From assembly GCA_038215615.1 (NCBI GenBank), contig JBBQQR010000002.1, forward strand, positions 81,743 to 145,742: a stretch of 64,000 nt of DNA, in the 5' to 3' direction. The notes beneath the pieces are model-generated. The model was not told the origin of the DNA. It worked only from the letters and a program-made list of their open reading frames with translations, and did no database searches. This stretch comes from Vulcanimicrobiales bacterium. GTDB lineage: Bacteria > Vulcanimicrobiota > Vulcanimicrobiia > Vulcanimicrobiales > Vulcanimicrobiaceae. The translations under genes were made by a program, and so were the position numbers. This document shows, piece after piece, positions 26,201 through 48,284 of the stretch (its first letter is position 1; every line of letters begins with the position of its first letter).

Positions 26201-26466
26201 AGGTTCGCGTCTTGCAAAATAGCGCTTTGTAAATGAGCGCCTTGCAAATTCGCACCGGTCAGATCCGCGTGAGTCAGATTTGCGCCCGTTAGATCGGCGC
26301 CTTGCAAATCCGCATTGCGCAAGTCGGCGTTGCGGAAGTCGTGGTTCTTTAGGTTGGCGTTTTGAAAGTTCTCGTCACGCGCCGGCGCGGCAAGTGGAAG
26401 AAAGCCGGCGAGAAAGGCAGCCAAGCAGATCGTTGCGCGGACGGCGCGCGGATGCAAACCCAACAC
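23209..26466 (-). CDS. LptD-like outer-membrane protein with N-terminal pentapeptide-repeat domain and long Pro/Ala linker
   Basis: Signal peptide, A(N/D)LxG-type repeats, OstA-like jellyroll, LptD-type motif TTCERP.YHI...IYPGD...VFYLP...GYNSYQG, barrel-like C-terminus ending in Phe. Start approximate. Confidence 0.8.
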   Translation of the reverse strand: MLGLHPRAVRATICLAAFLAGFLPLAAPARDENFQNANLKNHDFRNADLRNADLQGADLTGANLTHADLTGANLQGAHLQSAILQDANLLRANLQSLDAQGAVFQGARLEQANLQSALLYGVNFYRANLRHADLAGANLETSNLRQADMRDANLQGANLLRTDTRGARWLGASLQNARRSDELALATPLPELTAAPVIASAMPIARVVATPITHVTPAPARAPEKAAVARALPSPARKALAPQKISVRKVAVSAIAPAAVQSVPAPHLIPAPHPLLTPLPLLTPVPMPAPAPAPMPSPAADNVMSSEAIFGLLNANTCAARASGSSDLVAQVTPTPAPSPTSSAAVPNAPLAPGQLYATPIPTGNTVTPPPIPMPAPSAKASAGPVFLIRGSAPPSIVPNRSPTPETSPTPIVAPTLRPGYVAVMADKFVGNANKQGAPGDAIGNVHIFYQDEVLVGERAHYDGFKTISVTGNPYIVNSTDTSILHADRIEFDTLAQRADLINGRGESSQGVERGLVYFAAKDLKADEHGVSHGDYANVTTCERPRAGYHITGRTIDIYPGDRMVISKAVLFLGAAAVFYLPKVIIPLRSIQDERQRPSFFPEVGYNSYQGFYIKAKPGFGRDQYFYGYYRVEYYSRQGFGLGYTAFLARQNGKRQTSVDTYAIHDRRTQTTAWNLNAQDTENFSQSLRARFGFAYNSNFGPLINLPPNESISGSIAHTGKNAQQNYTFSHSSIATQSATDNFGFTETRSFGPTTQNSLSLNLSSARTNYGLNNASNNSSGTFSDLLQWSNRVAAYTLKYDKSFARTPYGLNKEPELEIHPYSFLKHFIIPITSSFTIGNYNEPQTPLSTSRADLFFNFGPALYHVLGSDISAGVNVHQFAYGTGDMKASIQQTATMSTPIGRHVLNAITYNETNYNGPAFLPFSTLDQQPTFNYKSAADVLRFFNSDFYNLTLSFNTAFNRAAQPVQYQLAVHPSRRSYVALAGSFIPGPGNGFFTTNLQFSTPFGNGSTLQFIGDIDWKNKGRIINKSIYWSRIIGDCYQIQLQYNQAAKQVNLTLNLLAFPSRGASFGLNGTGSIIPTSFNF
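25930..26373 (-). repeat. Pentapeptide-repeat coding tract
   Basis: Continuous NANLK/NADLR/GADLT/GANLQ units over roughly 145 aa. Confidence 0.9.
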
Positions 26467-26474
26467 GGCGCGGC

Positions 26475-27629
26475 CTAGTGCTCTTCGTACCAAAGCAGGG
26501 CCAGGCCGCCGATGCCAAAGACGAGATTGGGCACCCACGAGACGAGGTACGGGTTCACGCGTCCCGTGCTGCCGAACGCGGCGGCCGCCTCGGAAAGAAT
26601 GAAATAGATGAAGAACGCGATGATCGACATCGCGATACCCATCATGCGCCCTTTCTTGCCGAACATGATCGCAAGGGGCAGCGCTAGCAAGACCGCTACC
26701 AGCGCAGAGAACGGAAACGCGAGCTTATCTGCCAGGTTGACTTGCAGATTTCCAAGCGCTTCACCGCCGACACCTTGCGCTTGCAAAGCGCTGACCTGGT
26801 GGGCGAGTTGTTTGGAGTTCATGGTCCACGCATCGCTGTTCGAGCTGCTGAGGAACTGCGCGGCGTTTTCTCCCAGCGGCAAGCCGATGCTGGCCTCAGA
26901 CTTGTCCACTTGCGACGTCATGTAGCCTTGAGCGTTGTAAAACGTAATGACGACGCCGTTCAGAACCAGCGTAGGGCCGGCCACGTGCGCGGTCTTGGCC
27001 TGGATCGTTTCGTTCCAATAGCCGTTGCGTCCCGGTTTGAATATCTGCACGCCGGCCATCGTGCGTCCGTCGGGCAGTACGTGGTCGATGAAGAACTCGT
27101 TATTGGTATCCGGATCCTTACGGAAAAATTGCGCCTCGACCGGCAGCGCGCCCGTGTGATAAATGATCTGATAAAACGTGCGTGTGGAGACCTCGACGGA
27201 CTTGGGCGCGACGAATTCGTTCATCGCCCAAGAGAACAAAAAAACGACAAACCCAAAGATGAGCGGCGTGAGACAGAGCCGCCACAGAGAAGTTCCGGAA
27301 GTGCGGATGGCGTTGATCTCGTTGTCGGCCATGAGCCGCCCGATTCCAAGCAGTGTCGCGAAGAGCGCCGCGAACGGAAAAGCCATCGGAATCGACTGCG
27401 GGATGCGGAAGACGACGAACCGCAGGACGAGAAAAACCGGCGCGCCGTGACCGATGACTTGATTGGCGGCCAAGAAGAAAATATTGAAGCCCCAAAATAA
27501 AAAGAACGCGAGGAACGCGAATACGAACGGCCCGATGAACTCACGCAAAAGGTAAGCGTCGAGCAGCGGCAAGCGCCAAGAGCGGAACAGGTTGAGGGGC
27601 GCGGGGCGTGCTCCGGAAATGGAGGCCAT
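26475..27629 (-). CDS. LptF/LptG-family permease
   Basis: LDAYLLRE, DNEINAIRTSGTS, periplasmic beta domain, KLAFPF and WVPN. Confidence 0.92.
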   Translation of the reverse strand: MASISGARPAPLNLFRSWRLPLLDAYLLREFIGPFVFAFLAFFLFWGFNIFFLAANQVIGHGAPVFLVLRFVVFRIPQSIPMAFPFAALFATLLGIGRLMADNEINAIRTSGTSLWRLCLTPLIFGFVVFLFSWAMNEFVAPKSVEVSTRTFYQIIYHTGALPVEAQFFRKDPDTNNEFFIDHVLPDGRTMAGVQIFKPGRNGYWNETIQAKTAHVAGPTLVLNGVVITFYNAQGYMTSQVDKSEASIGLPLGENAAQFLSSSNSDAWTMNSKQLAHQVSALQAQGVGGEALGNLQVNLADKLAFPFSALVAVLLALPLAIMFGKKGRMMGIAMSIIAFFIYFILSEAAAAFGSTGRVNPYLVSWVPNLVFGIGGLALLWYEEH

Positions 27630-28273: not shown

Positions 28274-28717
28274 TTGCACGCGGATTTGCCGCGCTTTACC
28301 GGTACGGCCGAGCATGCCCTTGACGACAAGGGCCGTCTCATCGTGCCCGCGCGCTTCCGCGAACGACTCGGGAACGGCTTCGTCTTAACCATCGCGCAGC
28401 CGGACCCGTGCCTCGCCCTCTATCCGCAGGCGGCTTGGGCCGAATTCTGCAGCCGGCTCGAAAGCGCCCCGCGGAAGGACGAGCGTTTCCGCCGTCTCGT
28501 GCGACACATCTTTGCGCGCACCGAGGAGGTTGCATGCGACGTTCAAGGACGTCTGCTCATCCCGTCGGCGCTGCGGGCGTACGCCGGCATCGAGCGCGAG
28601 GTCGTTTCTGTCGGCTCGCTCACGCGGGTCGAGATCTGGGCGGCAGAGCGCTACGCCTCGCACGCCGCGCCCGATCCCGAAGCCGGTGACTTAATGGCGG
28701 AGCTGGGACTTTATTAA
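28274..28717 (+). CDS. mraZ: Transcriptional regulator MraZ
   Basis: DDKGRLIVP and DVQGRLLIP repeats, VEIW, and first position in the dcw cluster. Confidence 0.96.
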   Translation: MHADLPRFTGTAEHALDDKGRLIVPARFRERLGNGFVLTIAQPDPCLALYPQAAWAEFCSRLESAPRKDERFRRLVRHIFARTEEVACDVQGRLLIPSALRAYAGIEREVVSVGSLTRVEIWAAERYASHAAPDPEAGDLMAELGLY

Positions 28718-28732
28718 TGGCGGGCTGGAGCG

Positions 28733-29605
28733 ATGCAACACATTCCCGTTTTTCACGCGCAAGCTTTAGAGTGGCTGGCGATTCGCCCGTCTGGGATCTA
28801 TGTGGATGCGACCTTCGGCGCGGGTGGCCATTCGCGTGGCATCCTCTCGCGTTTGAAGGGCGGGCGGCTCATTGCGCTCGACGCGGATCCTTCGGCCGGG
28901 CCGCGGGCTGCCGAGATCGACGATTCCGCCTTTACGTTTATTCATGCGAATTTCCGCGAGCTGCCGGACGTTCTCGATCGCCTCGGCATCGAGCTGGTGG
29001 ACGGCGTTCTGTTCGACTTGGGGGTTTCTTCGATGCAATTTGACGAACCGTCGCGCGGTTTTTCTTTCCGGGAATCCGGACCGCTCGACATGCGCATGAA
29101 TCCGCTGGCCGGACGAAGCGCTTACGATGTGCTCATGAGCGCGAGCGAAACCGAACTTGCCGAGATCTTCTTCGACTACGGTCAAGAACGCGCCGCGCGC
29201 AGAATCGCGCGCACGATCGTGCACCGCCGCAAAGCCGGGCTGTTCCCGGGGACAACGCTGGAGTTTGCGCGCATGATTAGCGGACTGATGCACCGTCCGG
29301 GACGGCGCGAGCGCATCCATCCGGCCACGCGTGTCTTTCAGGCACTGCGCATCGCCGTCAATGACGAACTCGAAGCGCTGCGAGAAGGTTTGGACAGCGC
29401 CGTCAACCGGCTGCGCGGAGCGGGACGGGTCGTCGCGATCAGCTTCCATTCATTGGAAGACCGGATCGTCAAACGCAAATTCTTGCAAGACGATCGTTTA
29501 GAAATTCTGACGCGCAAGCCGCTGGTACCCGGTCACGATGAGATCGAACAGAACCCGCGCGCGAGCAGCGCGAAAATGCGCGCTGCAGAACGGAAGGCGA
29601 GCTGA
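28733..29605 (+). CDS. rsmH: 16S rRNA C1402 methyltransferase
   Basis: HIPV, DATFGAGGHS, DLGVSSMQ and ISFHSLEDRIVK. Confidence 0.97.
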   Translation: MQHIPVFHAQALEWLAIRPSGIYVDATFGAGGHSRGILSRLKGGRLIALDADPSAGPRAAEIDDSAFTFIHANFRELPDVLDRLGIELVDGVLFDLGVSSMQFDEPSRGFSFRESGPLDMRMNPLAGRSAYDVLMSASETELAEIFFDYGQERAARRIARTIVHRRKAGLFPGTTLEFARMISGLMHRPGRRERIHPATRVFQALRIAVNDELEALREGLDSAVNRLRGAGRVVAISFHSLEDRIVKRKFLQDDRLEILTRKPLVPGHDEIEQNPRASSAKMRAAERKAS

Positions 29606-30024
29606 TGGTCGCCTACCAATCCAATCCGCGTCTGCGCAACGTGCGCACCGCCAAGCACGCAACGCATCTGCGTAAGACCCACGCGTCGCGCGCTCGTTAT
29701 ACCAGTTTGGTTCGATTTTCGGGGGCACTCGGCGTGGTGCTGGTCGGCGTGATGATCTACGTCATGCTGATCGCGAACCTGACGAGCTTGAATTACTCCG
29801 TCGCGCGCGCCGACAGACAGCGCGCCTCGCTGCAGGCGGAAACGGCTCGCCTCGACGACCGGCTGGCGGCGCTGCGTTCCGACGATCGCTTGGCGAAAAT
29901 GGCGGCGGCGCTGCATATGCGCGAGCCGCAGCAGTTTGCATTGGTCACGCTTCCGCCGGCTGCGCCGCAGGGACAATCGAGACTGTTTCTTTCCAGTTTG
30001 GCGAGCTGGTTCGGCGCTAAATAG
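29605..30024 (+). CDS. ftsL: FtsL-like cell division protein
   Basis: Basic N-terminus, one TM, coiled coil, and position between rsmH and ftsI. Confidence 0.7.
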   Translation: MVAYQSNPRLRNVRTAKHATHLRKTHASRARYTSLVRFSGALGVVLVGVMIYVMLIANLTSLNYSVARADRQRASLQAETARLDDRLAALRSDDRLAKMAAALHMREPQQFALVTLPPAAPQGQSRLFLSSLASWFGAK

Positions 30025-30040
30025 GGTCTGAAGGAGACTC

Positions 30041-31831
30041 GTGCATCGCCGAAACTTCTCGCGCGTCGCTCCACGCCGCGCAAAAGCGCTCTTTTACTTC
30101 GCTGCTGCGATTGCGCTGATACTGGGCTGGCGGCTCGTGGAAGTGCAAGTCTTCAAAGGACCGATCTACGCGAAGCAGGCGCTGGCGCAACGCACTGACA
30201 CGGTCGACGTCTTCGCGCGGCGCGGCAGCATTCTCGATCGAGACGGCAACGTTCTCGCGTATTCGCTTCCATCGGAAAGCGTCTACGCAGTTCCCCACGA
30301 TCTCGGCGACGCCGGCGCGACTATCGCGCGGCTCCAGAAAGTGTTGGGAAAAATTCCCGCCGCGACGACTTCGCTTCTGCGCGACCGCACGATGCAGTTC
30401 GTCTGGGTCGCTCGCAAGATTCCACACGATCAGGCCGACGCGATCTCCGCGCTCCAATTGCCCGGAATTTCCGTCATGGAAGAAGATACCGGGCGCCGGG
30501 TCGATCTCGCCGGCCAAACGGCTTCGACGGTCGTTGGATTTGTGGGGATCGACGAGAACGGATTGGCCGGAATCGAGTACGCATACGACGACCTTTTAAA
30601 AGGAACGTCGGGGCGCGTCACGCTCGAAGCTGACGAGTTCGGACACCCGATTCCGTTCGGTCGCCAGCGCGCGGTGCGGGCGGCCAAACCCGGGATGACA
30701 CTCGAGCTGACGATCGACCCGTATCTGCAGTTCGTGGCCGAAGCCGCACTCAGGAAACAGGTCGCGGAATTTCACGCGCAAAGCGGCACGGCGCTGGTCT
30801 TGGATCCGTTCACCGGCGAAGTGCTCGCGCTCGCCGACCTGCCGCACTTCGATCCGAATTCGTATTGGAAGTTTTCGGCCGACGAGCGCCGCGAGCGTGC
30901 AGTGCAAGATTCCTACGAGCCCGGTTCGACGTTCAAACTCTTGACCGCGGCGGCTGCGCTCGAGAGCGGCAAAGTTACGACGTCGTCGTATTTTCCGGCG
31001 CGCAACGCAATCGAAGTCGGCGGCCGCGTGATCCATAACGCCGAAGACGACATGCCGGTTCGCGGCAGCAGCGAGACGCTTGAAGACATCATCGCGTATT
31101 CGCATAACGTCGGAGCGGCCGAAGTCGGCCTCTCGATCGGCGGCAAGACGTTTTATGAAATGGAACGGCGCGCAGGTTTCGGCGATTCTACGCACGTCGG
31201 TTTCGCCGGTGAAAATCCCGGCATCGTGCCTGCGCCCGCGGATTGGAGCGACAGCTCGCTCGCGACCATGGCGTTTGGGCAGGGCGTTTCGGTAACGCCG
31301 CTCGCGCTGGCGCGCTACTATTGTGCGATCGCCAACGGCGGATTGCTGGTGCGCCCGCGGCTGGTGCGCGCGATCTTCGATGCGCAGGGGCGCCTACTCT
31401 ATCAGTACGGGCCGGAGATCGAACGGCGCGTCTTTTCTCGGCGCACGGCCGACACGCTGCGGCGCTTTCTCCGAGCCGTCGTCGTACGTGGTACCGGGAA
31501 TCCGAGCGCGCAGCTGGCCGGCTATACGACTGCGGGCAAGACCGGCACGGCGCAAGTTGTCGAAAACGGCCGGTACGAGCCCGGCGCGTACATCGCTTCC
31601 TTTATAGGGATGGTGCCCTACGAGCATCCGCGGTACTTAATCTATGTGAAAGTCGAGCGCCCCGAAGGCGCCATTTACGGCTCCGTGGTCGCCGCGCCGG
31701 CTTTTTCCGAGATCGCGCGGCAGGCGATGCTGCACGCCGGGACGCTTCCGGCGACGCCGCGTCCGAAGCCGTCGCCGGTTCCCGCAAAACGCTTGGTCCG
31801 TCCGGAACGCACGGCGAACCTCACCCCATGA
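30041..31831 (+). CDS. ftsI: Class B penicillin-binding protein (FtsI-like)
   Basis: RGSILDRDG, EPGSTFK (SxxK), SHN (SxN) and KTGTAQ. Confidence 0.93.
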   Translation: MHRRNFSRVAPRRAKALFYFAAAIALILGWRLVEVQVFKGPIYAKQALAQRTDTVDVFARRGSILDRDGNVLAYSLPSESVYAVPHDLGDAGATIARLQKVLGKIPAATTSLLRDRTMQFVWVARKIPHDQADAISALQLPGISVMEEDTGRRVDLAGQTASTVVGFVGIDENGLAGIEYAYDDLLKGTSGRVTLEADEFGHPIPFGRQRAVRAAKPGMTLELTIDPYLQFVAEAALRKQVAEFHAQSGTALVLDPFTGEVLALADLPHFDPNSYWKFSADERRERAVQDSYEPGSTFKLLTAAAALESGKVTTSSYFPARNAIEVGGRVIHNAEDDMPVRGSSETLEDIIAYSHNVGAAEVGLSIGGKTFYEMERRAGFGDSTHVGFAGENPGIVPAPADWSDSSLATMAFGQGVSVTPLALARYYCAIANGGLLVRPRLVRAIFDAQGRLLYQYGPEIERRVFSRRTADTLRRFLRAVVVRGTGNPSAQLAGYTTAGKTGTAQVVENGRYEPGAYIASFIGMVPYEHPRYLIYVKVERPEGAIYGSVVAAPAFSEIARQAMLHAGTLPATPRPKPSPVPAKRLVRPERTANLTP

Positions 31832-33288
31832 TCGAACCGGGCGTGCTGCTGGAACTGCTGCTCGAAGGATTGCCGGACAGCCGCATCACCGGCGGCGGGT
31901 CCGTGATGGTTTCGTCGCTCTCTTTCGATTCGCGATCGGTTCGGCCCGGCGCGTTGTTTTTTGCGATTGCCGGCGAACATACCGACGGCCACCGCTACGT
32001 AGGTGAAGCCATCGCGCGCGGCGCCTGTGCCGTGATCATGGAGCGCGATGTCGATCTTCCGCCGAATATTGCCGGCGTGATCGTCCCGGATTCGGCAGCG
32101 GCGCTTTCAAAGATCGCCGACACGTTCTATCGATCGCCGTCGCGCAATCTCGCAATCGCCGGAATCACCGGAACCAACGGGAAGACGACCGTCACGCACA
32201 TGATCGCCGCTATCGCTAACGCGGCCGGTATTTCCGCGGGGATTGTCGGTACGCTCGGAACGAAATTTGACGACATAGATCGCCCACTCGACCACACGAC
32301 GCCGCTCGCGTCGGAGTTACAAGCGCTGCTCGCGCAGATGCGCGACAAAGCCGTGAAAATTGTGGCGATGGAAGTCAGTTCGCACGCGCTCGCGCTCGAG
32401 CGCGTTTCCGACGTACATTTTGCCGTGGCGGGGCTGACGAACGTCACGCGCGATCATCTGGATTTTCACGAAACGCCCGAAGCCTACGCCGCTGCTAAGC
32501 GCCGGCTCTTCGATTTTGCGGAGCGCGCCGTTCTCAATGCCGACGATCCGTACGGAGCTCGGTGGGCCGCCGAGCTGCGCGACGTAAAACCCGTTGTTGC
32601 TTTTGGCGTGGAGTGTCCGGCTGACGTCCGCGCGGAAAAAATTCGCGTACACGCGAGCGGTTCGAACTTCGAGGTAGACGGACGGCAATTCGAGCTCCGA
32701 CTTACCGGACGGTTCAACGTCAGCAACGCTTTGTGTGCGATCGCTTCCGCGCGAATGCTTGGAATCGCGGACGATATCTCTGCGCGCGGCTTGGCGTCGG
32801 TCGAACACGTGCGCGGTCGCATGGAGCGTATCGATGGCGGCGACGTCGACGTGATCATCGATTACGCGCATACGCCCGACGCGTTGGAATCCGCATTGCG
32901 CGCGCTGCGCGAAGTAGCGCCCGGCCGTCGCATCGTCGTTTTCGGCTGCGGCGGCGATCGGGATCGCGGTAAGCGGCGCGAGATGGGCGCGGTCGTCGCG
33001 CAAAATGCGGACTACGCCTACGTAACATCCGACAATCCGCGCACAGAAGATCCGCGCGCGATTATTGAAGACATACTGCCCGGCATGGCAGGGGCGCCGC
33101 ACGAAGTCGAACCGGATCGCCGCCGCGCGATCGCGACTGCGATTCGAAACGCGCAACCCGGCGACACGATTTTGATCGCCGGCAAAGGTCACGAGACATA
33201 TCAGATCGTCGGCAAGCGAGTCTTACCATTTGATGACGCCGCCGAAGCGCGCCGTGCGCTGGCGGAACGCGAGCGCGTTCCATCATGA
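31828..33288 (+). CDS. murE: UDP-MurNAc-tripeptide synthetase (mDAP-adding)
   Basis: GITGTNGKTT, MEVSSHAL, DYAHTPDAL, the DNPR mDAP motif and AGKGHE. Confidence 0.96.
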   Translation: MIEPGVLLELLLEGLPDSRITGGGSVMVSSLSFDSRSVRPGALFFAIAGEHTDGHRYVGEAIARGACAVIMERDVDLPPNIAGVIVPDSAAALSKIADTFYRSPSRNLAIAGITGTNGKTTVTHMIAAIANAAGISAGIVGTLGTKFDDIDRPLDHTTPLASELQALLAQMRDKAVKIVAMEVSSHALALERVSDVHFAVAGLTNVTRDHLDFHETPEAYAAAKRRLFDFAERAVLNADDPYGARWAAELRDVKPVVAFGVECPADVRAEKIRVHASGSNFEVDGRQFELRLTGRFNVSNALCAIASARMLGIADDISARGLASVEHVRGRMERIDGGDVDVIIDYAHTPDALESALRALREVAPGRRIVVFGCGGDRDRGKRREMGAVVAQNADYAYVTSDNPRTEDPRAIIEDILPGMAGAPHEVEPDRRRAIATAIRNAQPGDTILIAGKGHETYQIVGKRVLPFDDAAEARRALAERERVPS

Positions 33289-34655
33289 CGCTTTCGTTCG
33301 AACGTGCGGCCGAGGCGACAGGCGCGGAAATGCGCGGTCGCGAGCGCGCTCCCGAAACGCTCACGGTTGTCACCGATACGCGGTCGCTGAATCCGGGAGA
33401 TACGTTCCTGGCACTGCGCGGCGAGCACTTTGACGGCCACGATTTCATCGGCGAGGCGCTGAAAAAAGGCGCCGCGGCCGTCGTCGTCGATTCTCCCGAG
33501 GCTCAAAGCAACGGCGTCGCTGCGCTGATCGTACGCGACACGCGCCGGGCGTACATGGATTTGGGTGCGGCGTCGCGCGCGCAGTTTTCCGGACGCGTCG
33601 TCGCGGTGACCGGCAGCTGCGGAAAAACGACGACCAAAGATTTTCTGTGCCAGCTGCTGATCGCGACGCTGGGACCTTCGGCCGTCGCTTCATCGCCGGG
33701 GAATGAAAACAATGAAATCGGCGTCAGCAAGCTGTTGCTCTCGCTCACGCCGCAGCAGCAGATGCTCGTTGTCGAGATGGGCGCGCGGCATACCGGCGAG
33801 ATTGCCGAACTGGTCGCGATTGCATCGCCGCATATAGGTATATTGACGAACGTAGGCGACGCGCATTTGGAGATTTTCGGATCGCGCGAGAAGCTGGCGG
33901 CCACGAAATGGGGGCTGTTTTCAGAGGGCGCGCAGGCTGTGCTCAACGCGCGCGATGAGATCTCTCGTAACCGGTCGAGCTCGCTCGAAGCGCCGCCGCT
34001 GTGGTTTGGCGAAGGCGAGCCTTCGCTGCCCGGCGTCTGGGTCCGCGACGAAAGCACGCTCGTGCTCAACTATGGCGGCGCCTCCCAGACGCTTTCGATC
34101 CGCACGCCGTTTCCCGGCGCGCACAATCGCGCGAACCTTGCGGCTGCAATTGCGGGGGCGCTGTTGCTCGGAATAAACGCCGAGGAAATCGCGAGTAACG
34201 TCGCGGGACTCGTCTTGCCGCCAGGGCGGTATGAAAACATCGCGATCCCCGCCGGGCCGCGGCTCATTTATGATGCGTACAACGCGAACGCGAGCGGCAC
34301 GATAGCGTCGCTTACGACCTTCTCAGCGGAAAACGCTCGCCGCCGCATTGCGGTGCTTTCCAGCATGGCGGAGCTCGGTTCCGATGCACCTGCGATCCAC
34401 GAACGCGTTGGAGCTCACGCGGCGTCGATGAACATCGACGTGCTGCTGGTCGGGGGGGATTTTGCCGCATCGCTAGCCGCGGGCGCGGTGCGCGCGGGCT
34501 TGTCGCGCGAGCAGATCGTGACGTTCGGCGAAAACGAAGAAGTGGCGAAGTGGCTTCGCAAACATGCTACCGATGAAGACGTCGTCTTGCTGAAAGGCTC
34601 GCGCAAATACCGCATGGAGGAGATCGTGCAGTCGCTTCGGGCAGGTGCGGCGTGA
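33285..34655 (+). CDS. murF: UDP-MurNAc-pentapeptide synthetase
   Basis: TGSCGKTTTK, NNEIGV, DAYNAN and LLKGSR. Confidence 0.95.
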   Translation: MTLSFERAAEATGAEMRGRERAPETLTVVTDTRSLNPGDTFLALRGEHFDGHDFIGEALKKGAAAVVVDSPEAQSNGVAALIVRDTRRAYMDLGAASRAQFSGRVVAVTGSCGKTTTKDFLCQLLIATLGPSAVASSPGNENNEIGVSKLLLSLTPQQQMLVVEMGARHTGEIAELVAIASPHIGILTNVGDAHLEIFGSREKLAATKWGLFSEGAQAVLNARDEISRNRSSSLEAPPLWFGEGEPSLPGVWVRDESTLVLNYGGASQTLSIRTPFPGAHNRANLAAAIAGALLLGINAEEIASNVAGLVLPPGRYENIAIPAGPRLIYDAYNANASGTIASLTTFSAENARRRIAVLSSMAELGSDAPAIHERVGAHAASMNIDVLLVGGDFAASLAAGAVRAGLSREQIVTFGENEEVAKWLRKHATDEDVVLLKGSRKYRMEEIVQSLRAGAA

Positions 34656-35356
34656 GCGGAAGCTTGCGCGTCGACCGCCCGCAGATTCCGGCCGGCATGG
34701 TTGCGATTCCGGTGCGCACGCGTCTCGTGCAGCCGGGAGAAGATCTCCCCGCGCTTATTCAAACCTCGGTTGACGGCATCGCGCAGCCCGGGGACGTGCT
34801 GGCGATTTCTGAAACCGCTGTCGCGATCGCGCAGCGTCAGGCGGTGCCCGCGGAGTACGTGCGCCCGTCGCGCCTCGCGCTGCTGCTCTCGCGCCACGCC
34901 GGCGCCATGGCGACCGTGAGTCAGCCGGAGTCGGTGCAGATCGTGATCGACAACGTCGGCGCTCCGAAAGTCGCATACGCTGCCGTTATGCAAGTTTTGG
35001 GGCGTTTGGCCGGCCGGCGCGGCATGTTCTATGAAATTTTGGGCGAGGCGATTGCGGCGATCGATGGGTACACCGGGACGATGCCGCCGTTTGATAACAT
35101 GATCGTCTTTGCGCCGCAAAACCCCGACGCGTTTGCGCAGTCCGTTTTTGAGCGGACCGGTATTGGATGCGCGGTGGTCGACGCGAACGATCTCAATAGC
35201 GCCAAAGTTTTGGGCGCGTCGTCCGGCGTCAATCGCGACAGCGTCGCCGAGGCGCTCCTTTCAAATCCTCACGGCAACGGAGACGAGCAAACACCGGTCG
35301 TTGTTCTGAAGTGGCGCGGCGAGGGCCGCAATCCGCTGGTCGAGGCACGCCCGTGA
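34652..35356 (+). CDS. CofE-like (coenzyme F420-0:L-glutamate ligase fold) protein of unknown substrate
   Basis: LVQPGEDL, GDVLAISETAVAIAQ, AIDG, VVDANDL and NPHGNGDEQTPVVVL resemble the F420_ligase family. GTGA overlaps with both murF and mraY. Confidence 0.8.
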   Translation: MSGSLRVDRPQIPAGMVAIPVRTRLVQPGEDLPALIQTSVDGIAQPGDVLAISETAVAIAQRQAVPAEYVRPSRLALLLSRHAGAMATVSQPESVQIVIDNVGAPKVAYAAVMQVLGRLAGRRGMFYEILGEAIAAIDGYTGTMPPFDNMIVFAPQNPDAFAQSVFERTGIGCAVVDANDLNSAKVLGASSGVNRDSVAEALLSNPHGNGDEQTPVVVLKWRGEGRNPLVEARP

Positions 35357-36336
35357 ATACGGTCGATTTCGCCGTGCAGATTCATCCATGGGGACTGGTC
35401 GCCGTTGCACTCCTCGGCTTTTTGCTAGCCGTCGTCACCTGCGCCCTACTATTACCGGTGTTGGGCAAACTGCAACTGCGCCAACGCGCGTACGAAGACG
35501 CGCCCGAGTCCCATCAAATAAAGACGGGAACGCCCACGATGGCGGGAGCGTGCTTTGTGATTGCGCTCGTACCGATGCTGCTCATACCGAGTGCCGCACT
35601 CGGCTATTTGTTGGCGCTGGTGGCCGGTTGCGCGCTCATCGGATTGCTCGACGACGTATTGGGCGTACGCTTCGGACGAAATCGGGGGCTAAGAGCGCGT
35701 ACGAAATTCTTGTTCACAGCGCTCGTAGCGGTCATGTTCCTGCGAGCAATCGACGGCGGGAGTGCCGTCTATCCCCGTGACGTCATTTTAACCATTAGCA
35801 GTCACGCGATCCCCGCTCCTCATTGGGTGTGGTTAATCCTGGGTATCGTCGCGATTGCGGGTACAATGCACGCCGTTAACCTTACCGACGGCCTCGATGG
35901 TCTCGCGTCCGGCGCGATGGTTTTTCCGCTGGGCGTGCTCGCAACTCTGGCCGTGATCACTTTCACCGCGCTCAGCATTCCGGCGCTCCTCGGCCTAGGA
36001 GCGTGCTTGGGTTTTCTTGTTTACAATCGGTACCCGGCGAAGCTCATCATGGGTGACACGGGTTCCCTTGCGCTCGGCGCGTTGCTTTCGGGGATTGCGA
36101 TCCTGAGCGGGCAGATGCTGCTCCTGGTCATCATCGGTGGCGTTTTCGTGGCCGAAGCGCTGTCGGTAATGACCCAGGTCGTGTACTTCAAACTGACGCA
36201 CGGCAAGCGCATCTTCAAGATGAGTCCGTTGCACCATCATTTCGAGCTATCCGGATGGCCGGAAACAAAAGTAACGACGCGGTTTTGGATTGCGTCCGCG
36301 ATTTTCTCCGCCGTGGGACTGGCGATCGTAAGATGA
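35353..36336 (+). CDS. mraY: Phospho-MurNAc-pentapeptide translocase
   Basis: KTGTPTMAG, NLTDGLDGL, MGDTGSL and PLHHHFE. Confidence 0.97.
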   Translation: MNTVDFAVQIHPWGLVAVALLGFLLAVVTCALLLPVLGKLQLRQRAYEDAPESHQIKTGTPTMAGACFVIALVPMLLIPSAALGYLLALVAGCALIGLLDDVLGVRFGRNRGLRARTKFLFTALVAVMFLRAIDGGSAVYPRDVILTISSHAIPAPHWVWLILGIVAIAGTMHAVNLTDGLDGLASGAMVFPLGVLATLAVITFTALSIPALLGLGACLGFLVYNRYPAKLIMGDTGSLALGALLSGIAILSGQMLLLVIIGGVFVAEALSVMTQVVYFKLTHGKRIFKMSPLHHHFELSGWPETKVTTRFWIASAIFSAVGLAIVR

Positions 36337-37712
36337 ATTTTGCTGCCGGCGAGAAGATCTTGGTCATCGGGCTCGGGCGCAGCGGGAAAGCCGTCGCCGA
36401 AGTCTTGCGCGGCCGCGGCGCCGATGTATATGCCATCGACGAAAAACCCCGGGCCGAGCTCGCGGAGACGATTGCCGGTCTTGAAGCAATGGGCGCGCAG
36501 TACGTCGCCCCCGAGAACATCGGAGAACTCACCAACGTGAATTGCGCCGTCCTGTCTCCGGGCGTGCCGCTGAACGGACCGCTGGTCCGCAAGATCCAGA
36601 GCGGCAACATTCCGGTCTACAGCGAGATCGAAGTCGCTTACCGTTTGTGCAAGGCGCCGATTATCGCCGTCACGGGAACCAAAGGAAAATCGACGACAGC
36701 CTCGCTTATCGGCCACTTGCTGCGCGCGTCGGGCAAAGATGCGCGCGTCGGCGGCAACATCGGCAATCCGCTCATTCTGGAAGCCGTTGCCGCGTCGCCG
36801 GAAAGCTGGGTCGTAGCCGAAGTGTCGTCGTTCCAGCTCGAAACGATTCGCTCGTTCCATCCGCGTGTATCGGTGCTTCTGAATATTTCGGCCGACCATC
36901 TGGACCGGTATCACTCGATGGACGAATACATCGAAGCGAAATATCGCATCTTCGCAAACCAAAACGAACACGACGTCTTTATCGGAAACCTCGACGATCC
37001 GGTGCTGGCACTTTTGCACCGGCACTCGGGCGAAGCGCGCGTGCGCGCCAAACAAATGTGGTTTACGCTCGGAAACGACAGCAAACACGCGACGATGTAC
37101 TTGCGCGACGGCATGCTAATCTTTTCGCCGGTGACCGGCGATCCGCGGCCGATCGCTATTGCGGGCCGCGACGATATTTCATTGGCGGGACTGCACAACG
37201 TGCAGAACGTTATGGCCGCGTCGCTGGCCGTGCTGGCTGCCGGCCTCGAACCGCGCGAACTTCGCGACGGCATCCGGACCTTCGGTCCCATGTCGCACCG
37301 CATGCAGCCCGTCGGTGAAGTTGACGGCGTCCTTTACGTGGACGATTCGAAAGCCACCAACCCAGGCGCCGTAATCGCGGCTCTGCGCGCGTATGACAAA
37401 CCCATCGTGCTAATCGCCGGCGGGAAACCCAAGAACACCGACTTTACCGAACTCGGCCGGGTCGTTGACGAACGCGCCCGCGCGCTCGTGGTGATCGGCG
37501 AAGCCGCTGGCGACATTGCGGCGCACGTGTACCGCACGCCGATCGAGCGCGCCGGTTCCATGGAAGAAGCGGTTCGCACGGCGCAGTCGCTGGCCCAGCC
37601 CGGTGACATCGTATTGCTTTCGCCGGCATGCGCCTCGTTCGACATGTTCGAATCGGCCGAAGATCGCGGACAAAAATTTACCGATGCTGTGTTGGGGACG
37701 CCGGCGCGATGA
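36333..37712 (+). CDS. murD: UDP-MurNAc-L-Ala:D-Glu ligase
   Basis: GLGRSG, TGTKGKST, EVSSFQLE, DDSKATN and LSPACASFD. Confidence 0.96.
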   Translation: MNFAAGEKILVIGLGRSGKAVAEVLRGRGADVYAIDEKPRAELAETIAGLEAMGAQYVAPENIGELTNVNCAVLSPGVPLNGPLVRKIQSGNIPVYSEIEVAYRLCKAPIIAVTGTKGKSTTASLIGHLLRASGKDARVGGNIGNPLILEAVAASPESWVVAEVSSFQLETIRSFHPRVSVLLNISADHLDRYHSMDEYIEAKYRIFANQNEHDVFIGNLDDPVLALLHRHSGEARVRAKQMWFTLGNDSKHATMYLRDGMLIFSPVTGDPRPIAIAGRDDISLAGLHNVQNVMAASLAVLAAGLEPRELRDGIRTFGPMSHRMQPVGEVDGVLYVDDSKATNPGAVIAALRAYDKPIVLIAGGKPKNTDFTELGRVVDERARALVVIGEAAGDIAAHVYRTPIERAGSMEEAVRTAQSLAQPGDIVLLSPACASFDMFESAEDRGQKFTDAVLGTPAR

Positions 37713-38869
37713 AAGCTTCGGTTGCCAAGCGGCAGGCCCATAACCAAGAACTTCCGCGTTCGTTCGTCGCTTCGCCGCCCGACACGTGGCTGTTCATCGC
37801 GGTCACGAGTTTGGTTGCGATTGGGCTGGTCATGATCTTCAGCGCCTCGAGCGCGCAAGCGTACGCCGATCACCACGACACGGCGTACTACGTGAAGCGG
37901 CAAGCACTGTATCTGGTGATCGGGTTGATAGGCGCGTACTTTGCCTACAAGATCGATTACCGCAAGCTGCGCGCGTTCGCTCCCTACGCGCTGCTGCTAT
38001 GCATCGCAGGTCTGCTGACCGTTTTCGTTCCACACGTAGGTCAGACAGTCTCCGGCGCACGCCGCTGGATCGGCGCGGGCTCGATTTCTTTGCAGCCTTC
38101 CGAGTTTGCCAAACTGGGCCTCGTGATCTATTTAGCGGCGGCGCTCGCGGGCCGCGGCGAACGTATCACCTCGCTGACGCGGGGGCTCGCGCCGCTCTGC
38201 ATCCCCGTCTTTTTCACGGCGATGCTGGTGCTCATCGAACCCGACATCGGAACGTCGAGCCTCTTGGTCTTCACGGCATTTGCCATGTTCTTCGCGGCCG
38301 GAGCGCGGTTCGAGCATCTGCTGATGGTTATTGCGGTCACCCTTCCTCCGGCCGCCATCGCGATCATGAGCAGTCCGTACAAGCGCGCGCGCATTTTTGC
38401 GTTTCTGCATCCTTTCAAAGACGCGCAGAACACCGGCTTTCACATCGTGCAGTCGTTGCTTGCGCTTGGCAGCGGGGGCGTCTTCGGCGTCGGGCTGGGC
38501 GAATCGCGCGCGAAATTTTTCTATCTCCCCGAGCAATACACCGACTTCATCTTCTCCGTGCTCGGCGAAGAGCTCGGCTTGATCGGAACGGCTACCGTCC
38601 TGATTCTCTTCGGAACGCTGGCCTACCGCGCGATTCGCATCGCCATCGCCGCGCCCGACCGGTTCGGCTTCTTCCTGGCGACCGGCTGCGCCGCACTCAT
38701 CGTCATTCAGGCGTTCGTGAACATCGCTGTCGTCACGTCGTCCTGGCCCGTAACCGGCGTGCCCCTTCCTTTTATATCGTTTGGCGGAAGCTCGCTGATC
38801 GTGTCGCTGATCGCCGTCGCGCTGATCATCAACGTCGGGCGGCACCGGCGGCTATCTCCTCCAGAGTGA
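37709..38869 (+). CDS. ftsW: SEDS peptidoglycan polymerase FtsW
   Basis: GARRWI, QPSEFAK, YLPEQYTDFIFSVLGEELG and PFISFGGSS. Confidence 0.96.
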   Translation: MKASVAKRQAHNQELPRSFVASPPDTWLFIAVTSLVAIGLVMIFSASSAQAYADHHDTAYYVKRQALYLVIGLIGAYFAYKIDYRKLRAFAPYALLLCIAGLLTVFVPHVGQTVSGARRWIGAGSISLQPSEFAKLGLVIYLAAALAGRGERITSLTRGLAPLCIPVFFTAMLVLIEPDIGTSSLLVFTAFAMFFAAGARFEHLLMVIAVTLPPAAIAIMSSPYKRARIFAFLHPFKDAQNTGFHIVQSLLALGSGGVFGVGLGESRAKFFYLPEQYTDFIFSVLGEELGLIGTATVLILFGTLAYRAIRIAIAAPDRFGFFLATGCAALIVIQAFVNIAVVTSSWPVTGVPLPFISFGGSSLIVSLIAVALIINVGRHRRLSPPE

Positions 38870-39975
38870 GAGTCGCGTTCGCGGGCGGCGGAACGGGTGG
38901 CCACGTCTATCCCGCGATCGCGATTGCCGACGCACTGCGCGATCGGGCCGAAATTCTCTTTATCGGAAGTCCCGACGGAATTGAAAACACGCTGGTTCCC
39001 GCGGCCGGCTACGAACTGGAGACAATCGAAAGCAGTCCACTGCAGCGCAGCGCTTCGTTGGGTACGCTGCGTACAATCGCCGCAAACGCCGTCGGGATCG
39101 CGCAAGGCGTGGGCGTGTTACGGACCTTCGATCCCGACATCGCGATCGCAACGGGTGGCTACGTTTGCTTTCCGGCGATGGCGGCTGCGCGAATTCTGCG
39201 CGGCGTGCGCCCGGGTCCGGCACTTGCTCTGCTCGAACCCAACGCGCATCCGGGACTTGCGAATCGCTTGCTGGCGCCGATCGTCGACGAAGTTTGGGGC
39301 GCATTTCCGCAAGCCGATCGGGCTTTTGCACGCAAGTACGTTTACACGGGCGTTCCGGTTCGTTCTTCGCTGCTCCATCCCGACAACCGGATAGAAGCGG
39401 CGCGCCGCCTCGGGTTGGATCCGTCGCGGCGCACGATTCTGGCGATCGGCGGAAGCCAGGGCGCGCGCACGATCAACGAAACCGTTGCAGCGCTGGTGAC
39501 GCGGCGTGCACTGCCGCCTGCCTGGCAGGTGCTGCACATCTGCGGCGAGCGCGACTACGAATATATGCAGGCCGCCGAGCGCACGCCCTTCGGCGAGAAT
39601 CTCGCCGTACTCGTTGCATACTTGCCCGACATGGCTGACGCGTACGCCGTCTGCGATCTCGCCATCGCCCGCGCGGGTGCCTCCACGCTTGGCGAACTGA
39701 CCGCCCTCGGGATTCCCGCGGTACTCGTGCCCTATCCGTTTGCAGCCGATGACCACCAAGCGCGGAACGCGCGGATGCTCGCCGACAGCGGCGTGGCCGT
39801 GGTCATCGCGGATGGGGAGCTTAACGCCGATTCGCTCTGGTGGACGCTGCGCGAGCTGATGCAGCCCGAACGGCTCGACGAAATGCGTTCCGCCGCGCGT
39901 TTGCGCGCCAATCGCGACCCGGTCACGGCAATTCTTGCGCGGGTGGAGGCGCTCGTTACCAAGAACGAGAGCTGA
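38866..39975 (+). CDS. murG: Lipid I GlcNAc transferase
   Basis: GGGTGGHVYP, GGSQGA and RAGASTLGE. GTG overlaps the ftsW stop. Confidence 0.96.
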   Translation: MRVAFAGGGTGGHVYPAIAIADALRDRAEILFIGSPDGIENTLVPAAGYELETIESSPLQRSASLGTLRTIAANAVGIAQGVGVLRTFDPDIAIATGGYVCFPAMAAARILRGVRPGPALALLEPNAHPGLANRLLAPIVDEVWGAFPQADRAFARKYVYTGVPVRSSLLHPDNRIEAARRLGLDPSRRTILAIGGSQGARTINETVAALVTRRALPPAWQVLHICGERDYEYMQAAERTPFGENLAVLVAYLPDMADAYAVCDLAIARAGASTLGELTALGIPAVLVPYPFAADDHQARNARMLADSGVAVVIADGELNADSLWWTLRELMQPERLDEMRSAARLRANRDPVTAILARVEALVTKNES

Positions 39976-39977
39976 CC

Positions 39978-41336
39978 TTGCGAACTTTGCACTTCGTCGG
40001 AATCGGCGGCATCGGCATGAGCGCCATCGCGCGCATCTTGCTCCAACGCGGCGAACGCGTGACCGGTTCGGACGCCATCGATTCGCCGCTGATTAAAGAA
40101 TTGAGAGCTGCGGGCGCGACCGTTATCGTCGGGCACGACGCGCGCAACGTCAACGGCGCAACGACGGTCGTCGTCAGCTCTGCGATCGATCACGAGAATC
40201 CGGAGTACCGCTGCGCGCTGGAGCGCGGCATTCCCATCATCGCGCGCGGCGAAATGCTCGCGCGGATCATGGAGGGCCGTCGCGGCATTGCGATTTGTGG
40301 AACGCACGGCAAGACGACGACGACCGCTATGACCGCCGCGGTCTTGCGTGGCGCGAACGTCGACGCAAGCCTGGTGCTCGGCGGCATCGACGGCGAGCTC
40401 GGCACGAACGCACATGACGGCACCGCACCCTGGTTTCTCACCGAAGCCGACGAGTCCGACGGGTCGTTCAGGCTGCTCGATCCGGCCGTCGCGGTTGTGA
40501 CGAACATCGAGAACGACCACCTCACTTCCGATGCCGAGATTCCGCAGCTCGTCGCTTCCTTTGAAGAATTTCTGGCAAAAGCGCCGGCCGACGGCGCCGC
40601 GATCGTCGGCGTCGACAATCCCCTGACGCGATCCCTGGCACAGAGCGCCCGCCGCGCGCGCACCATCACCTTTGGAATAGCCGCCGATGCGAGCATGCAC
40701 GCCTCGAACATTCGTTTCGAACAGGTGCAGTCTACATTCGAGCTTTTCGCCGACGGCGCCCGATTGGGAACGGTCGAACTGCACGTGCCCGGCGCGATGA
40801 ACGTCGAGAACGCGCTGGCCGCCGCCGCGGTAGGCTGGGCGCTGGATATTCCCTTCGCTTCGATGGCCGAATCGCTTAGCGGGTTTCGCGGTGTGCGCCG
40901 CCGCTTCGACGTTTTGGCGAAGAGCGCGCGCATGATCGTGGTCGACGACTACGCACATCATCCGACTGCGGTGCGTGAAACGATCGCCGCCGCCCGCCGC
41001 TACCATCACGGTCCGATCGTCGTCGCGTTTCAGCCGCACCGATACACGCGCACGGCGTATTTGGCGAACGCGTTCGCGGAGGCACTTTCGGATGCCGATC
41101 GCGTGTACTTGGCTCCCATCTACGGCGCGGGCGAAACGCCGGTGGATGGCGTGACGGAGCGCCTCATCGGCGAGCCGCTGGCGGCTGCGGGCGTACAAAT
41201 CTCGTACGTCAATTACGTGCACGACCTGCGTGAAGTATTGCAGCGCGAGGCGCCGGCGAACGCGCTCGTACTCATGCTCGGGGCCGGAAACATCACCAAG
41301 GTTGCGGCCGAACTCGCGCGGGACGTCTCCGCGTGA
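39978..41336 (+). CDS. murC: UDP-MurNAc:L-Ala ligase
   Basis: HFVGIGGIGMS, GTHGKTTT, EADESD and DDYAHHP. Confidence 0.96.
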   Translation: MRTLHFVGIGGIGMSAIARILLQRGERVTGSDAIDSPLIKELRAAGATVIVGHDARNVNGATTVVVSSAIDHENPEYRCALERGIPIIARGEMLARIMEGRRGIAICGTHGKTTTTAMTAAVLRGANVDASLVLGGIDGELGTNAHDGTAPWFLTEADESDGSFRLLDPAVAVVTNIENDHLTSDAEIPQLVASFEEFLAKAPADGAAIVGVDNPLTRSLAQSARRARTITFGIAADASMHASNIRFEQVQSTFELFADGARLGTVELHVPGAMNVENALAAAAVGWALDIPFASMAESLSGFRGVRRRFDVLAKSARMIVVDDYAHHPTAVRETIAAARRYHHGPIVVAFQPHRYTRTAYLANAFAEALSDADRVYLAPIYGAGETPVDGVTERLIGEPLAAAGVQISYVNYVHDLREVLQREAPANALVLMLGAGNITKVAAELARDVSA

Positions 41337-42280
41337 TCGCTGCAGATTCCGAACTGAGCAGCCTGCTGACCGGCGCCGATCGCCAAAAGCTCTGCGCGAT
41401 CTGCGGCGACGGCGCGCGTTTCGACGAACCGCTGGCGCCCTACACCTCGTGGAAGATTGGCGGGCCGGCCGATGCGTGGGTCGTGGCCGAAAATGAAGAA
41501 CAGCTCGCGGAGATCATGCGGCTGTGCGCGCGCCGGAAGCTGCCGTGGTTCGTCCTCGGAAGCGGCAGCAATCTACTGATCGGCGACGGAGGCATTCGTG
41601 GATTGGTTTTGCGGCTGGCCGGCGACTTCGCCGCGATCGATGTCGACGATAGCGGCACGGAAGTGACCGTTCGTGCGGGTGCATCGGCGGCGATGTCGCT
41701 GCTGACCGCCAAAGCAGCGTCGGCAGGCGCGGTCGGCATCGGTTCGCTGGCGGGAATACCCGGCAGCGTGGGCGGTTCGCTGCGCATGAATGCGGGCACC
41801 GATCGCGAGATTGGCGAATTCGTGCGCGAAGTCTGGGTGCAGTCGCCGGCGAAGGCGCAGGCGCAGCCGGTTTCCGTGCAATATTATTACCGTCACACGT
41901 CGCTCGCGCGCGACGCGATCGTTTCGCGCGTGACGCTGGCGTTCGAGCGTGGAGAAGCGCGAGCTGTGCGCGAGGAGATGCAAGAGCGCCTCGTGCGCCG
42001 CAAACGCACGCAGCCGATCGCGTTGCCCAATGCCGGCTCGTGTTTCCGCAATCCCGAGGGCGACAAAGCGGCGCGTTTGATCGAGGCTGCCGGCGCTAAG
42101 GGGTGGCGCGAAGGCGGCGCGGAAGTCTCGGCGCTGCATGCTAACTTCATCACCAACACGGGGAATGCGAGCGCGAAAGATGTTGCGACCCTGCTGGCGC
42201 GCGTCCGCCGCGCGGTGAGCGAACAGTTCGGCGTGGATTTACAACTCGAAGTGCATCTGGTCGGCGTCTTTATCGAATGA
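41333..42280 (+). CDS. murB: UDP-N-acetylenolpyruvoylglucosamine reductase
   Basis: IGGPAD, GSGSNLL, GIPGSVGG, QP...NAGSCFRNP and HANFI. Confidence 0.95.
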   Translation: MIAADSELSSLLTGADRQKLCAICGDGARFDEPLAPYTSWKIGGPADAWVVAENEEQLAEIMRLCARRKLPWFVLGSGSNLLIGDGGIRGLVLRLAGDFAAIDVDDSGTEVTVRAGASAAMSLLTAKAASAGAVGIGSLAGIPGSVGGSLRMNAGTDREIGEFVREVWVQSPAKAQAQPVSVQYYYRHTSLARDAIVSRVTLAFERGEARAVREEMQERLVRRKRTQPIALPNAGSCFRNPEGDKAARLIEAAGAKGWREGGAEVSALHANFITNTGNASAKDVATLLARVRRAVSEQFGVDLQLEVHLVGVFIE

Positions 42281-43221: not shown

Positions 43222-43228
43222 GAAGATA

Positions 43229-47877: not shown

Positions 47878-48284
47878 CGCATGCGCTCGAAGAGCACCGA
47901 GATCACTGCGACGGGCAACCCGAAAAACAAACACGTCGCGCCCAGCCCGAATGCCACTTGCTGCACCGTGTGGATTTGCTCGGCCGCGATGCCGTACAGT
48001 ACCAGCTGCGTCACCACGTAGACGATGACGCCGAACGACAGCCCCGAGAGAACCGGAAAGCGGTTGACCTGGGGCTGGGTGGCGGCAAGATAGGCATAAC
48101 CCACGCCCCAGGCCAGGCATGCGGCGACATAAACGGCGGCATACCCGGCGATGTGCGGGTCCGTCGCTATGCGCCCGAGCGCGGCTGGAAAGTAGATGAC
48201 CCCGAAGAGGACGCACCCTGCTGCTCCCTCCGCGGCGCCTTTTGAGGCGAAGCGAGCCCACCCCGTAAGGGGAACTTTACGCAA
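47874..48284 (-). CDS. Small membrane protein, about 4 TM
   Basis: Hydrophobic helices. Stop overlaps the alr ATG. Start uncertain. Confidence 0.6.
   Translation of the reverse strand: MRKVPLTGWARFASKGAAEGAAGCVLFGVIYFPAALGRIATDPHIAGYAAVYVAACLAWGVGYAYLAATQPQVNRFPVLSGLSFGVIVYVVTQLVLYGIAAEQIHTVQQVAFGLGATCLFFGLPVAVISVLFERMR

Follow-up and report, generated by a model that had tools for sequence, protein, structure and literature searches.

CofE, the coenzyme F420-0:L-glutamate ligase, uses guanosine triphosphate (GTP) and Mn2+ to activate a carboxylate that is then attacked by the amine of glutamate, with release of guanosine diphosphate and inorganic phosphate; this course of reaction has been shown for CofE only. 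FolC2 of Chlamydia, a folate glutamate ligase of the CT611 type, is reportedly a member of the same Pfam family (PF01996) that was recruited to folate. In peptidoglycan synthesis, MurT/GatD and AsnB1/LtsA use nucleoside triphosphate (NTP) to activate a carboxylate of the stem peptide in lipid-linked precursors, and Kamio and co-workers are said to have described, in 1982, a membrane-associated lipid intermediate:diamine transferase activity in Selenomonas ruminantium, which forms an amide on the D-glutamate (D-Glu) alpha-carboxylate. Here, we analyze a CofE-fold gene that lies between murF and mraY in a 64,000-nucleotide stretch of DNA (the window) from Vulcanimicrobiales bacterium, a soil organism (GenBank assembly GCA_038215615.1, contig JBBQQR010000002.1, positions 81,743 to 145,742). 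The source genome comprises 2.21 Mb in 54 contigs and is estimated to be 100% complete.

In our best explanation, to which we give an even chance, the encoded protein is an NTP-dependent amide ligase that would tailor a stem-peptide carboxylate of UDP-N-acetylmuramic acid (UDP-MurNAc)-pentapeptide or of lipid I/II. In text searches of the literature on CofE or F420 ligase together with peptidoglycan, murF, mraY, or Negativicutes (supplements aside), no description of the gene was found, and the papers retrieved for COG1478 deal with folate or unrelated topics. A paper on Mur chimeras (PMC10214165) mentions neither F420 nor CofE, and a survey of division and cell wall (dcw) clusters (PMC8871954) contains neither the words F420, Eremiobacter, or "inserted" nor the phrase "between murF."

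A CofE relative that is not CofE

An earlier note on this DNA had described a 234-amino-acid (aa) gene that splits the murF/mraY pair with a GTGA overlap at both ends, and had pointed to the motifs AIDG, VVDAND, and GNGDEQTP in its product. Both descriptions hold: the gene and its overlaps are seen in the list of open reading frames (ORFs) and in the sequence, and the motifs occupy residues 136 to 139, 175 to 180, and 208 to 215, respectively. The surrounding dcw cluster reads mraZ, rsmH, an ftsL-like ORF (named from position only), an ftsI-type penicillin-binding protein gene, murE, murF, the CofE-fold gene, mraY, murD, ftsW, murG, murC, murB, and ddl (Table 1). No ftsQ, ftsA, or ftsZ was found downstream of ddl among the window ORFs scanned with Pfam.

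Because the protein scores above the PF01996 gathering score, has 1750 homologs at an E value of ≤1e-3 (among 4462 candidates), and carries conserved motifs, the sequence evidence indicates that the gene is real rather than a chance ORF of high-GC DNA. A search of cluster representatives without a word index returned 713 matches at an E value of ≤1e-3, 394 at ≤1e-10, and 78 at ≤1e-30.

The protein is a divergent member of PF01996 with a CofE fold, but it is not CofE. PF01996, the sole Pfam family found, matches at 46.1 bits (gathering score, 25) over profile positions 2 to 130 of 218 only, and the CofE equivalogs TIGR01916 and NF009809 reach 23.3 and 28.9 bits against cutoffs of 180.65 and 274, respectively. 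An AlphaFold2 model was built from a 33-row alignment (mean predicted local distance difference test [pLDDT] score, 89) and compared with the PDB. Foldseek returned five significant chains, all of them CofE of Archaeoglobus fulgidus (Af-CofE, AF2256; PDB 2PHN, 7ULD, and 2G9I), with E values of ~1e-10 and template modeling (TM) scores of 0.54 to 0.59; the best match was 2PHN (E value, 9.6e-11; TM score, 0.59). VIA, an aligner independent of Foldseek, placed 2PHN at a Z score of 14.7 (root mean square deviation of 3.4 Å over 185 residues, 25% identity), while the runner-up among 48,161 chains reached only 4.3. The CofE fold proposed in the earlier note is thus borne out by two structure comparisons. 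In addition, hhalign aligned residues 24 to 184 with canonical CofE from other classes of the phylum at 97.4% probability, and the ESM Atlas yielded only PF01996-type clusters, which we treat as leads. A likeness to phosphoheptose isomerase in a single-sequence PDB search (E value, 0.0015) was rejected as a chance match.

The likeness to Af-CofE extends beyond the fold. The N-terminal halves are homologous, with a common stretch GD-V-x-x-x-S/E-x-x-x-A-x-x-Q/E-G-R, and both proteins have an Asp-rich strand end (VVDAND here, IITDTN in CofE). Ahead of the last strand, their G-x-x-x-x-x-x-P loops match in length. The protein differs from Af-CofE in its scores far below the equivalog cutoffs, in an Ile in place of Lys45, in the lack of the tail carrying R234, and in a helical insert at residues 84 to 135 of the AlphaFold2 model; its gene also lies in a cell wall rather than a cofactor context, in a genome without an F420 pathway. 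Stand-alone bacterial CofE and the N-terminal domain of Mycobacterium tuberculosis FbiB belong to the same superfamily, but the protein studied here has no nitroreductase-like domain, unlike FbiB, and canonical bacterial CofE is encoded by a separate gene. Mur_ligase_M and Mur_ligase_C, the domains of the Mur ligase superfamily (MurC to MurF, Mpl, and MurT), were absent from the protein in Pfam scans. Its fold is accordingly unrelated to those of MurT/GatD and AsnB1/LtsA; it has no MurT_C domain, and a profile search found none anywhere in the source genome.

We then surveyed the F420 genes of the source genome by profile search. PF01996 has a single match, the CofE-fold gene itself. The CofD model TIGR01819 reaches 18.8 bits against a cutoff of 257, and the PF01933 protein is YvcK (TIGR01826, 360 bits versus 196). 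The CofC model TIGR03552 reaches at best 31.8 bits against 105. Two CofH-like genes encode MqnC (445.8 bits versus 428.1) and an MqnE-type protein, identities that fit the menaquinone reported for a cultured relative in the available part of PMC9758169. CofC, CofD, CofH, and canonical CofE were therefore not found in the source genome by profile searches that included no model of CofG's own. The earlier note's observation that the window holds no other F420 gene extends in this way to the whole genome for these four proteins, and the full F420 pathway that it had set against its own proposal was not encountered.

Across the phylum (Eremiobacterota/Vulcanimicrobiota), 119 of 121 sampled genomes carry the CofE-fold gene, the two misses being 75% and 67% complete; the gene occurs in 91/91 high-quality genomes of the phylum and in 52/52 genomes of its own class. 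Canonical CofE (TIGR01916 above cutoff) is encoded by 39 of the 121 genomes and by none of the 52. Since those 39 genomes carry both genes, the CofE-fold gene and canonical CofE are distinct paralogs. At two canonical CofE loci (L113 and L118), a 339-aa ORF lies directly downstream and looks luciferase-like by eye only.

Public annotation labels relatives of the protein "coenzyme F420-0:L-glutamate ligase," which, with the PF01996 score above gathering, would agree with the protein being CofE after all and adding glutamate to F420-0 that is imported or otherwise made. We consider this very improbable. The equivalog scores, the missing CofC, CofD, CofH, and canonical CofE, and the separate canonical CofE that F420-making genomes keep beside the CofE-fold gene all argue against it, as does the C terminus: the structural alignment stops at CofE residue 226 (model residue 232 of 234), leaving no counterpart of the tail in which R234 stacks on the F420 ring in the isoalloxazine pocket (available part of PMC10861534).

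A folate role like that of FolC2 is likewise not needed, because the source genome has a canonical FolC (322.5 bits versus 162.65) and the FolC2 model TIGR04132 scores only 12.6 bits against a cutoff of 350. FolC2 is comparable in being, reportedly, another PF01996 member that acts on a non-F420 carboxylate; it differs in that the gene described here falls far below its model and resides in a genome that keeps a normal FolC. At the genomic level, both F420 and folate roles are excluded.

Gene order, fusion partners, and a membrane anchor

To place the gene among its relatives, we collected 80 related loci from public genomes with the smaller of our alignments, which retrieves close Eremiobacterota relatives only; nearly all are labeled Vulcanimicrobiota, Eremiobacterota, or Baltobacteraceae (three otherwise), and the closest, from Candidatus Rubrimentiphilum, is 93% identical. 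murF lies directly upstream in 79 of these loci, the remaining one beginning inside the gene at a contig end, and mraY lies directly downstream in 80/80. Counted from the position equivalent to residue 1, the overlap with the murF stop measures 4 nucleotides (nt) in 37/79 loci and 7 nt in 18/79; in 76/79, this position falls between -25 and +5 nt from the stop. MurF and the CofE-fold gene share one frame in none of the 79.

Two loci represent a second family of the same class, and both lie inside the dcw cluster. One of the two (G085) encodes a single 742-aa protein in which a low-complexity linker of ~50 residues connects MurF to the enzyme; P0123 (736 aa), an independent representative, is built in the same way. 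Only these two were confirmed as true MurF fusions. The long open frames (>600 aa) in the sampled genomes are mostly high-GC read-through. A candidate at L013 was rejected because its MurF and CofE-like matches are in different frames, and an apparent CofE-like-MraY fusion in G101 (L030:4955-6679) is a frame artifact whose first ~245 residues are Arg-rich and out of frame. A predicted complex with MraY (42-row alignments for each partner) scored 0.00 against a mark of 0.32 in a run without controls and carries no weight on either side of the question of binding.

In the other classes of the phylum (eight loci), the homolog is 35 to 44% identical and ~400 aa long; a hydrophobic helix at its start and ~150 residues without a Pfam family precede the CofE-like domain. 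Five of these eight loci carry, beside the 400-aa anchored form, a divergently transcribed neighbor of 486 to 755 aa without a Pfam family (Table 1). These neighbors are mutually homologous (BLASTP E values of 1e-18 to 1e-103) and may be a functional partner.

A related arrangement is seen in 80 metagenome loci fetched with a Sporomusa homolog as the query. In 76/76 of those whose sequence extends 600 nt or more upstream, a gene of ~182 aa directly precedes the homolog. Its product shares homology with the first 190 aa of the 400-aa fused proteins, including the motifs VPF-N-G-Q, PR-D-Y-E, and Y-Y-GR. The model of this anchor protein (pLDDT, 85.7) consists of one long helix (residues 2 to 33) and a beta-sandwich. 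A fold search returned generic beta-sandwiches only, which point to no function, with nine chains at a Z score of at least 8, among them the TMEM106B luminal domain and a TRAPPII subunit at 8.9. The helix of the fused forms has Lys and Arg residues on its C-terminal side, from which the positive-inside rule predicts that the enzyme is cytoplasmic and membrane-tethered in the anchored lineages. A profile search found no anchor domain in the source genome, a negative that is weak without a positive control genome.

The Negativicutes-type loci have a thioesterase gene upstream (59/59), rph (26/64) or rdgB (Ham1; 36/60) downstream, and murI, for glutamate racemase, within 1.5 kb upstream in 44 of the 64 assessable loci. 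Sporomusa-type loci (L134 to L146) carry genes for an HgdB-like dehydratase, a BcrAD-type activase, and hydantoinase-A-like and HDAC-like proteins downstream.

By source name, the family occurs in Sporomusa, Methylomusa, Pelosinus, Thermosinus, Propionispora, and Lucifera, whose proteins are 72 to 88% identical among themselves, and in Selenomonas sputigena, Selenomonas sp., Anaerovibrio lipolyticus, Mitsuokella, and Selenomonadaceae; it was also found in Limnochordales and Candidatus Xenobia. Two homologs from Tetraselmis striata (P0142 and P0278) have an anchor-like N-terminal region, and a third sequence (P0237) has a eukaryote-looking N terminus similar to theirs.

Fusion partners were surveyed in 24 long or unusual homologs, hand-picked from the cluster representatives. 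Six carry AsnB-type glutamine amidotransferase modules (AsnB/GATase), two of them above the asparagine-synthase equivalog cutoff, and three carry Amidase_3 (MurNAc-L-Ala amidase) with no signal peptide visible. One is fused to MurF, one to a polysaccharide deacetylase located past a second hydrophobic segment, one to a PepV/Sapep-type dipeptidase, one to GNAT, and one to an adenylate kinase, which fits nucleotide use; three have TPR. PF01996 was the only family in five, and two had no family. The fusions to AsnB-type amidotransferases are consistent with a possible functional analogy to MurT/GatD and AsnB1/LtsA.

A candidate ligase of peptidoglycan precursors

The explanation that we favor would run as follows. 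A cytoplasmic CofE-fold enzyme, retooled away from F420, would, by analogy with CofE, use an NTP and a divalent metal to turn a free carboxylate into an acyl phosphate and would join that carboxylate to an amine (a diamine, an amino acid, or ammonia), with a nucleophile that would vary by lineage. The carboxylate would be one in the peptidoglycan stem peptide, carried either by UDP-MurNAc-pentapeptide, which MurF produces, or by lipid I/II, the D-Glu alpha-carboxylate being the leading candidate. In most lineages, the single-pass helix and beta-sandwich, either fused or supplied by the gene just upstream, would tether the enzyme to the inner membrane face. In class Eremiobacteria, the tether may have been lost and replaced by translational coupling to, or fusion with, MurF directly before MraY, a position that would correspond to the step at which the soluble precursor turns lipid-linked.

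We mapped the active site of Af-CofE onto the protein, taking Lys45 to be the GTP-contacting residue and D109, D150, T151, and E208 to be the metal ligands. IITDTN aligns with VVDAND, so that D150 falls on D177 (HMMER) or N179 (hhalign) and T151 on Ala or Asp, depending on the alignment. Ser40 and Thr41 correspond to Glu54 and Thr55, and Glu47 corresponds to Gln61. By eye, G208-N-G-D-E-Q-T-P215 can be aligned with an Af-CofE loop of identical length, G207-E-G-G-D-G-I-P214, which puts E208 of the latter opposite N209. In the 33-row alignment, T23, D48, Q61, D138, D177, N179, N205, and T214 are invariant or near-invariant family-wide.

Several observations weigh against an amide ligase acting on the cell wall. 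The position of Lys45 is taken by Ile59, which is invariant in the smaller alignment, so the lysine is not kept. D109 stands opposite Ala133 in hhalign, an ambiguous placement with an invariant Asp (D138) five residues on, and Negativicutes have Ala-Ser in place of the acidic pair D211/E212, which is hence no family-wide catalytic feature. The CofE-like acidic motifs that the earlier note saw as kept are retained in part. The dcw linkage, whose lack of conservation the earlier note would have counted against its proposal, is conserved in class Eremiobacteria but absent from the other classes of the phylum, where no Mur or MraY family was found among the 47 nearest ORFs scanned in the eight loci (58 of 83 greedily called ORFs were scanned in all, the outermost being dropped). 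The neighbors murI, rph, and rdgB occur together in Firmicutes even without a CofE-fold gene, so the Negativicutes context may be incidental. Among the fusion partners, GNAT, the PepV-type dipeptidase, and TPR are not peptidoglycan-specific, and the deacetylase is nearer PgaB/IcaB than peptidoglycan deacetylase. The family also occurs in Oscillospiraceae, in Spirochaetia, and in the green alga Tetraselmis striata (by source name), and the available part of PMC9758169 states no peptidoglycan chemotype for Eremiobacterota.

The replacement of Lys45 and the uncertain mapping of the metal ligands would suit a protein that is linked to peptidoglycan but is no amide ligase, such as a scaffold or regulator that couples MurF to MraY, or an enzyme that hydrolyzes or edits stem peptides or recycled muropeptides. 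Tight coupling of the gene to MurF and MraY and the fusions to hydrolases (Amidase_3 and the PepV-type dipeptidase) point the same way. However, the many polar residues that are invariant across distant lineages suit a catalytic site better than a scaffold. The characterized members of the fold are ligases, FolC2 reportedly among them, and we know of no characterized CofE-fold member that is anything else. CofE and FbiB are described as ligases in the available part of PMC10861534. On balance, we regard a nonligase role as quite unlikely.

The lack of mur linkage in other classes raises another alternative, that of a housekeeping ligase for a nonwall metabolite or cofactor, whose dcw placement in one class is a historical accident kept by translational coupling. 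Its presence in nearly every genome of the phylum whatever the context, its housekeeping neighbors in Negativicutes (thioesterase, rph, and rdgB), and the service of the fold to two cofactors, F420 and, reportedly, folate in Chlamydia FolC2, all agree with such a role. In contrast, the MurF fusion and several fusions to cell wall enzymes arose independently, a membrane anchor is unexpected for an enzyme of a soluble cofactor, and a folate function would be superfluous beside the canonical FolC. We judge this alternative unlikely.

An amine or amino acid ligase of peptidoglycan precursors, as put forward in the earlier note, draws independent circumstantial support from the fusions to MurF, Amidase_3, and AsnB-type modules, the anchor, and the occurrence of the family in Selenomonas, Anaerovibrio, Mitsuokella, and Sporomusa; the murF-mraY linkage from which that proposal set out is limited to one class.

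Elsewhere in the window, a 700-aa apolipoprotein N-acyltransferase carries LNT_N and CN_hydrolase at residues 25 to 469 and a C-terminal part of ~230 residues without a family. An 1109-aa protein whose gene adjoins LptF/G has N-terminal pentapeptide repeats and ~900 residues without a Pfam match; from its position, it may be an unusually built outer-membrane lipopolysaccharide assembly protein. The longest alanine racemase ORF has ~130 residues ahead of Ala_racemase_N and may be an over-long ORF call in high-GC DNA.

Table 1. Positions of the CofE-fold gene, its neighbors, and other features of the window, with the divergent neighbors at loci of other classes
Feature	Position	Strand	Remarks
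CofE-fold gene (PF01996)	34652..35356	+	234 aa, GTG start; divergent subfamily, not CofE equivalog
murF (UDP-MurNAc-tripeptide:D-Ala-D-Ala ligase)	33285..34655	+	Pfam Mur_ligase, Mur_ligase_M, Mur_ligase_C
mraY (phospho-MurNAc-pentapeptide translocase)	35353..36336	+	Pfam Glycos_transf_4; start at GTG 35353 or at the earlier in-frame GTG 35311
GTGA overlap, murF stop/CofE-fold gene start	34652..34655	+	TGA 34653-34655 shares the GTG
GTGA overlap, CofE-fold gene stop/mraY candidate start	35353..35356	+	TGA 35354-35356
Antisense ORF overlapping the CofE-fold gene	34415..35119	-	Also 234 aa; Arg-rich translation looks like a high-GC artifact
dcw cluster	28274..43221	+	Pfam scans of ORFs
ftsL-like ORF	29605..30024		
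ddl, closing the dcw cluster, then an amidohydrolase	42277..44608		
Apolipoprotein N-acyltransferase	20181..22283	-	
Gene adjoining LptF/G	23209..26538	-	
Longest alanine racemase ORF	46768..48261	-	
Divergent neighbor	L021:2039-4306	-	BLASTP
Divergent neighbor	L024:2678-4408	-	BLASTP
Divergent neighbor	L025:2386-4293	-	BLASTP
Divergent neighbor	L023:6277-7914	+	BLASTP
Divergent neighbor	L028:2921-4381	-	BLASTP

A possible role in polyamine attachment and cell wall tailoring

The diamine transferase of Selenomonas ruminantium is reportedly membrane-associated, and the CofE-fold subfamily occurs with its anchor in Selenomonas, Anaerovibrio, and Mitsuokella; the two differ in that the transferase is known as an activity only, while the CofE-fold protein is known from genes alone. 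In Negativicutes, the group that includes Selenomonas, Anaerovibrio, and Sporomusa, the stem peptide bears cadaverine or putrescine on its D-Glu alpha-carboxylate, and the S-layer homology (SLH) domain of OmpM binds the polyamine-modified wall (available parts of PMC10628300, 10.1101/2021.05.31.446380, and PMC12826042). Those parts of the three sources name no gene for polyamine attachment, and the word "transferase" does not appear in the available text of PMC10628300 and PMC12826042.

We tentatively suggest, as a possibility that we think improbable on present evidence, that the subfamily is the long-missing diamine-attaching enzyme, which would act on lipid-linked peptidoglycan precursors and join cadaverine or putrescine to their D-Glu alpha-carboxylate. 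In sister lineages, the amine attached may be a different one, for instance glycine or ammonia. It is equally speculative that the modification would be the handle gripped by SLH-domain outer-membrane proteins such as OmpM in diderm Terrabacteria, and we are as doubtful that Eremiobacterota carry the same modification, hard-wired at the murF-mraY junction. A diamine could be made in the source genome, which encodes an Orn/Lys/Arg-type decarboxylase (286 bits on PF01276); its one PF02784 protein is LysA. Two proteins of this genome have SLH motifs (L199:1183-2289 [-] on contig C15 and L200:991-1836 [-] on contig C17). Their signal sequences (LAACSGG) resemble those of lipoproteins, neither protein has an obvious beta-barrel, and they could be wall-binding outer-membrane lipoproteins.

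If the ligase explanation is right, the widely misannotated "coenzyme F420-0:L-glutamate ligase" of F420-less bacteria would be a new class of cell wall precursor tailoring enzymes, with a fold that had been known solely from the synthesis of cofactor tails, and the pathway of MurA to MurF, MraY, and MurG would have an extra step across a whole phylum. It would also provide a concrete gene candidate for peptidoglycan polyamination. As polyamination underlies outer-membrane tethering in diderm Firmicutes, such an enzyme would bear on models of the diderm-to-monoderm transition.

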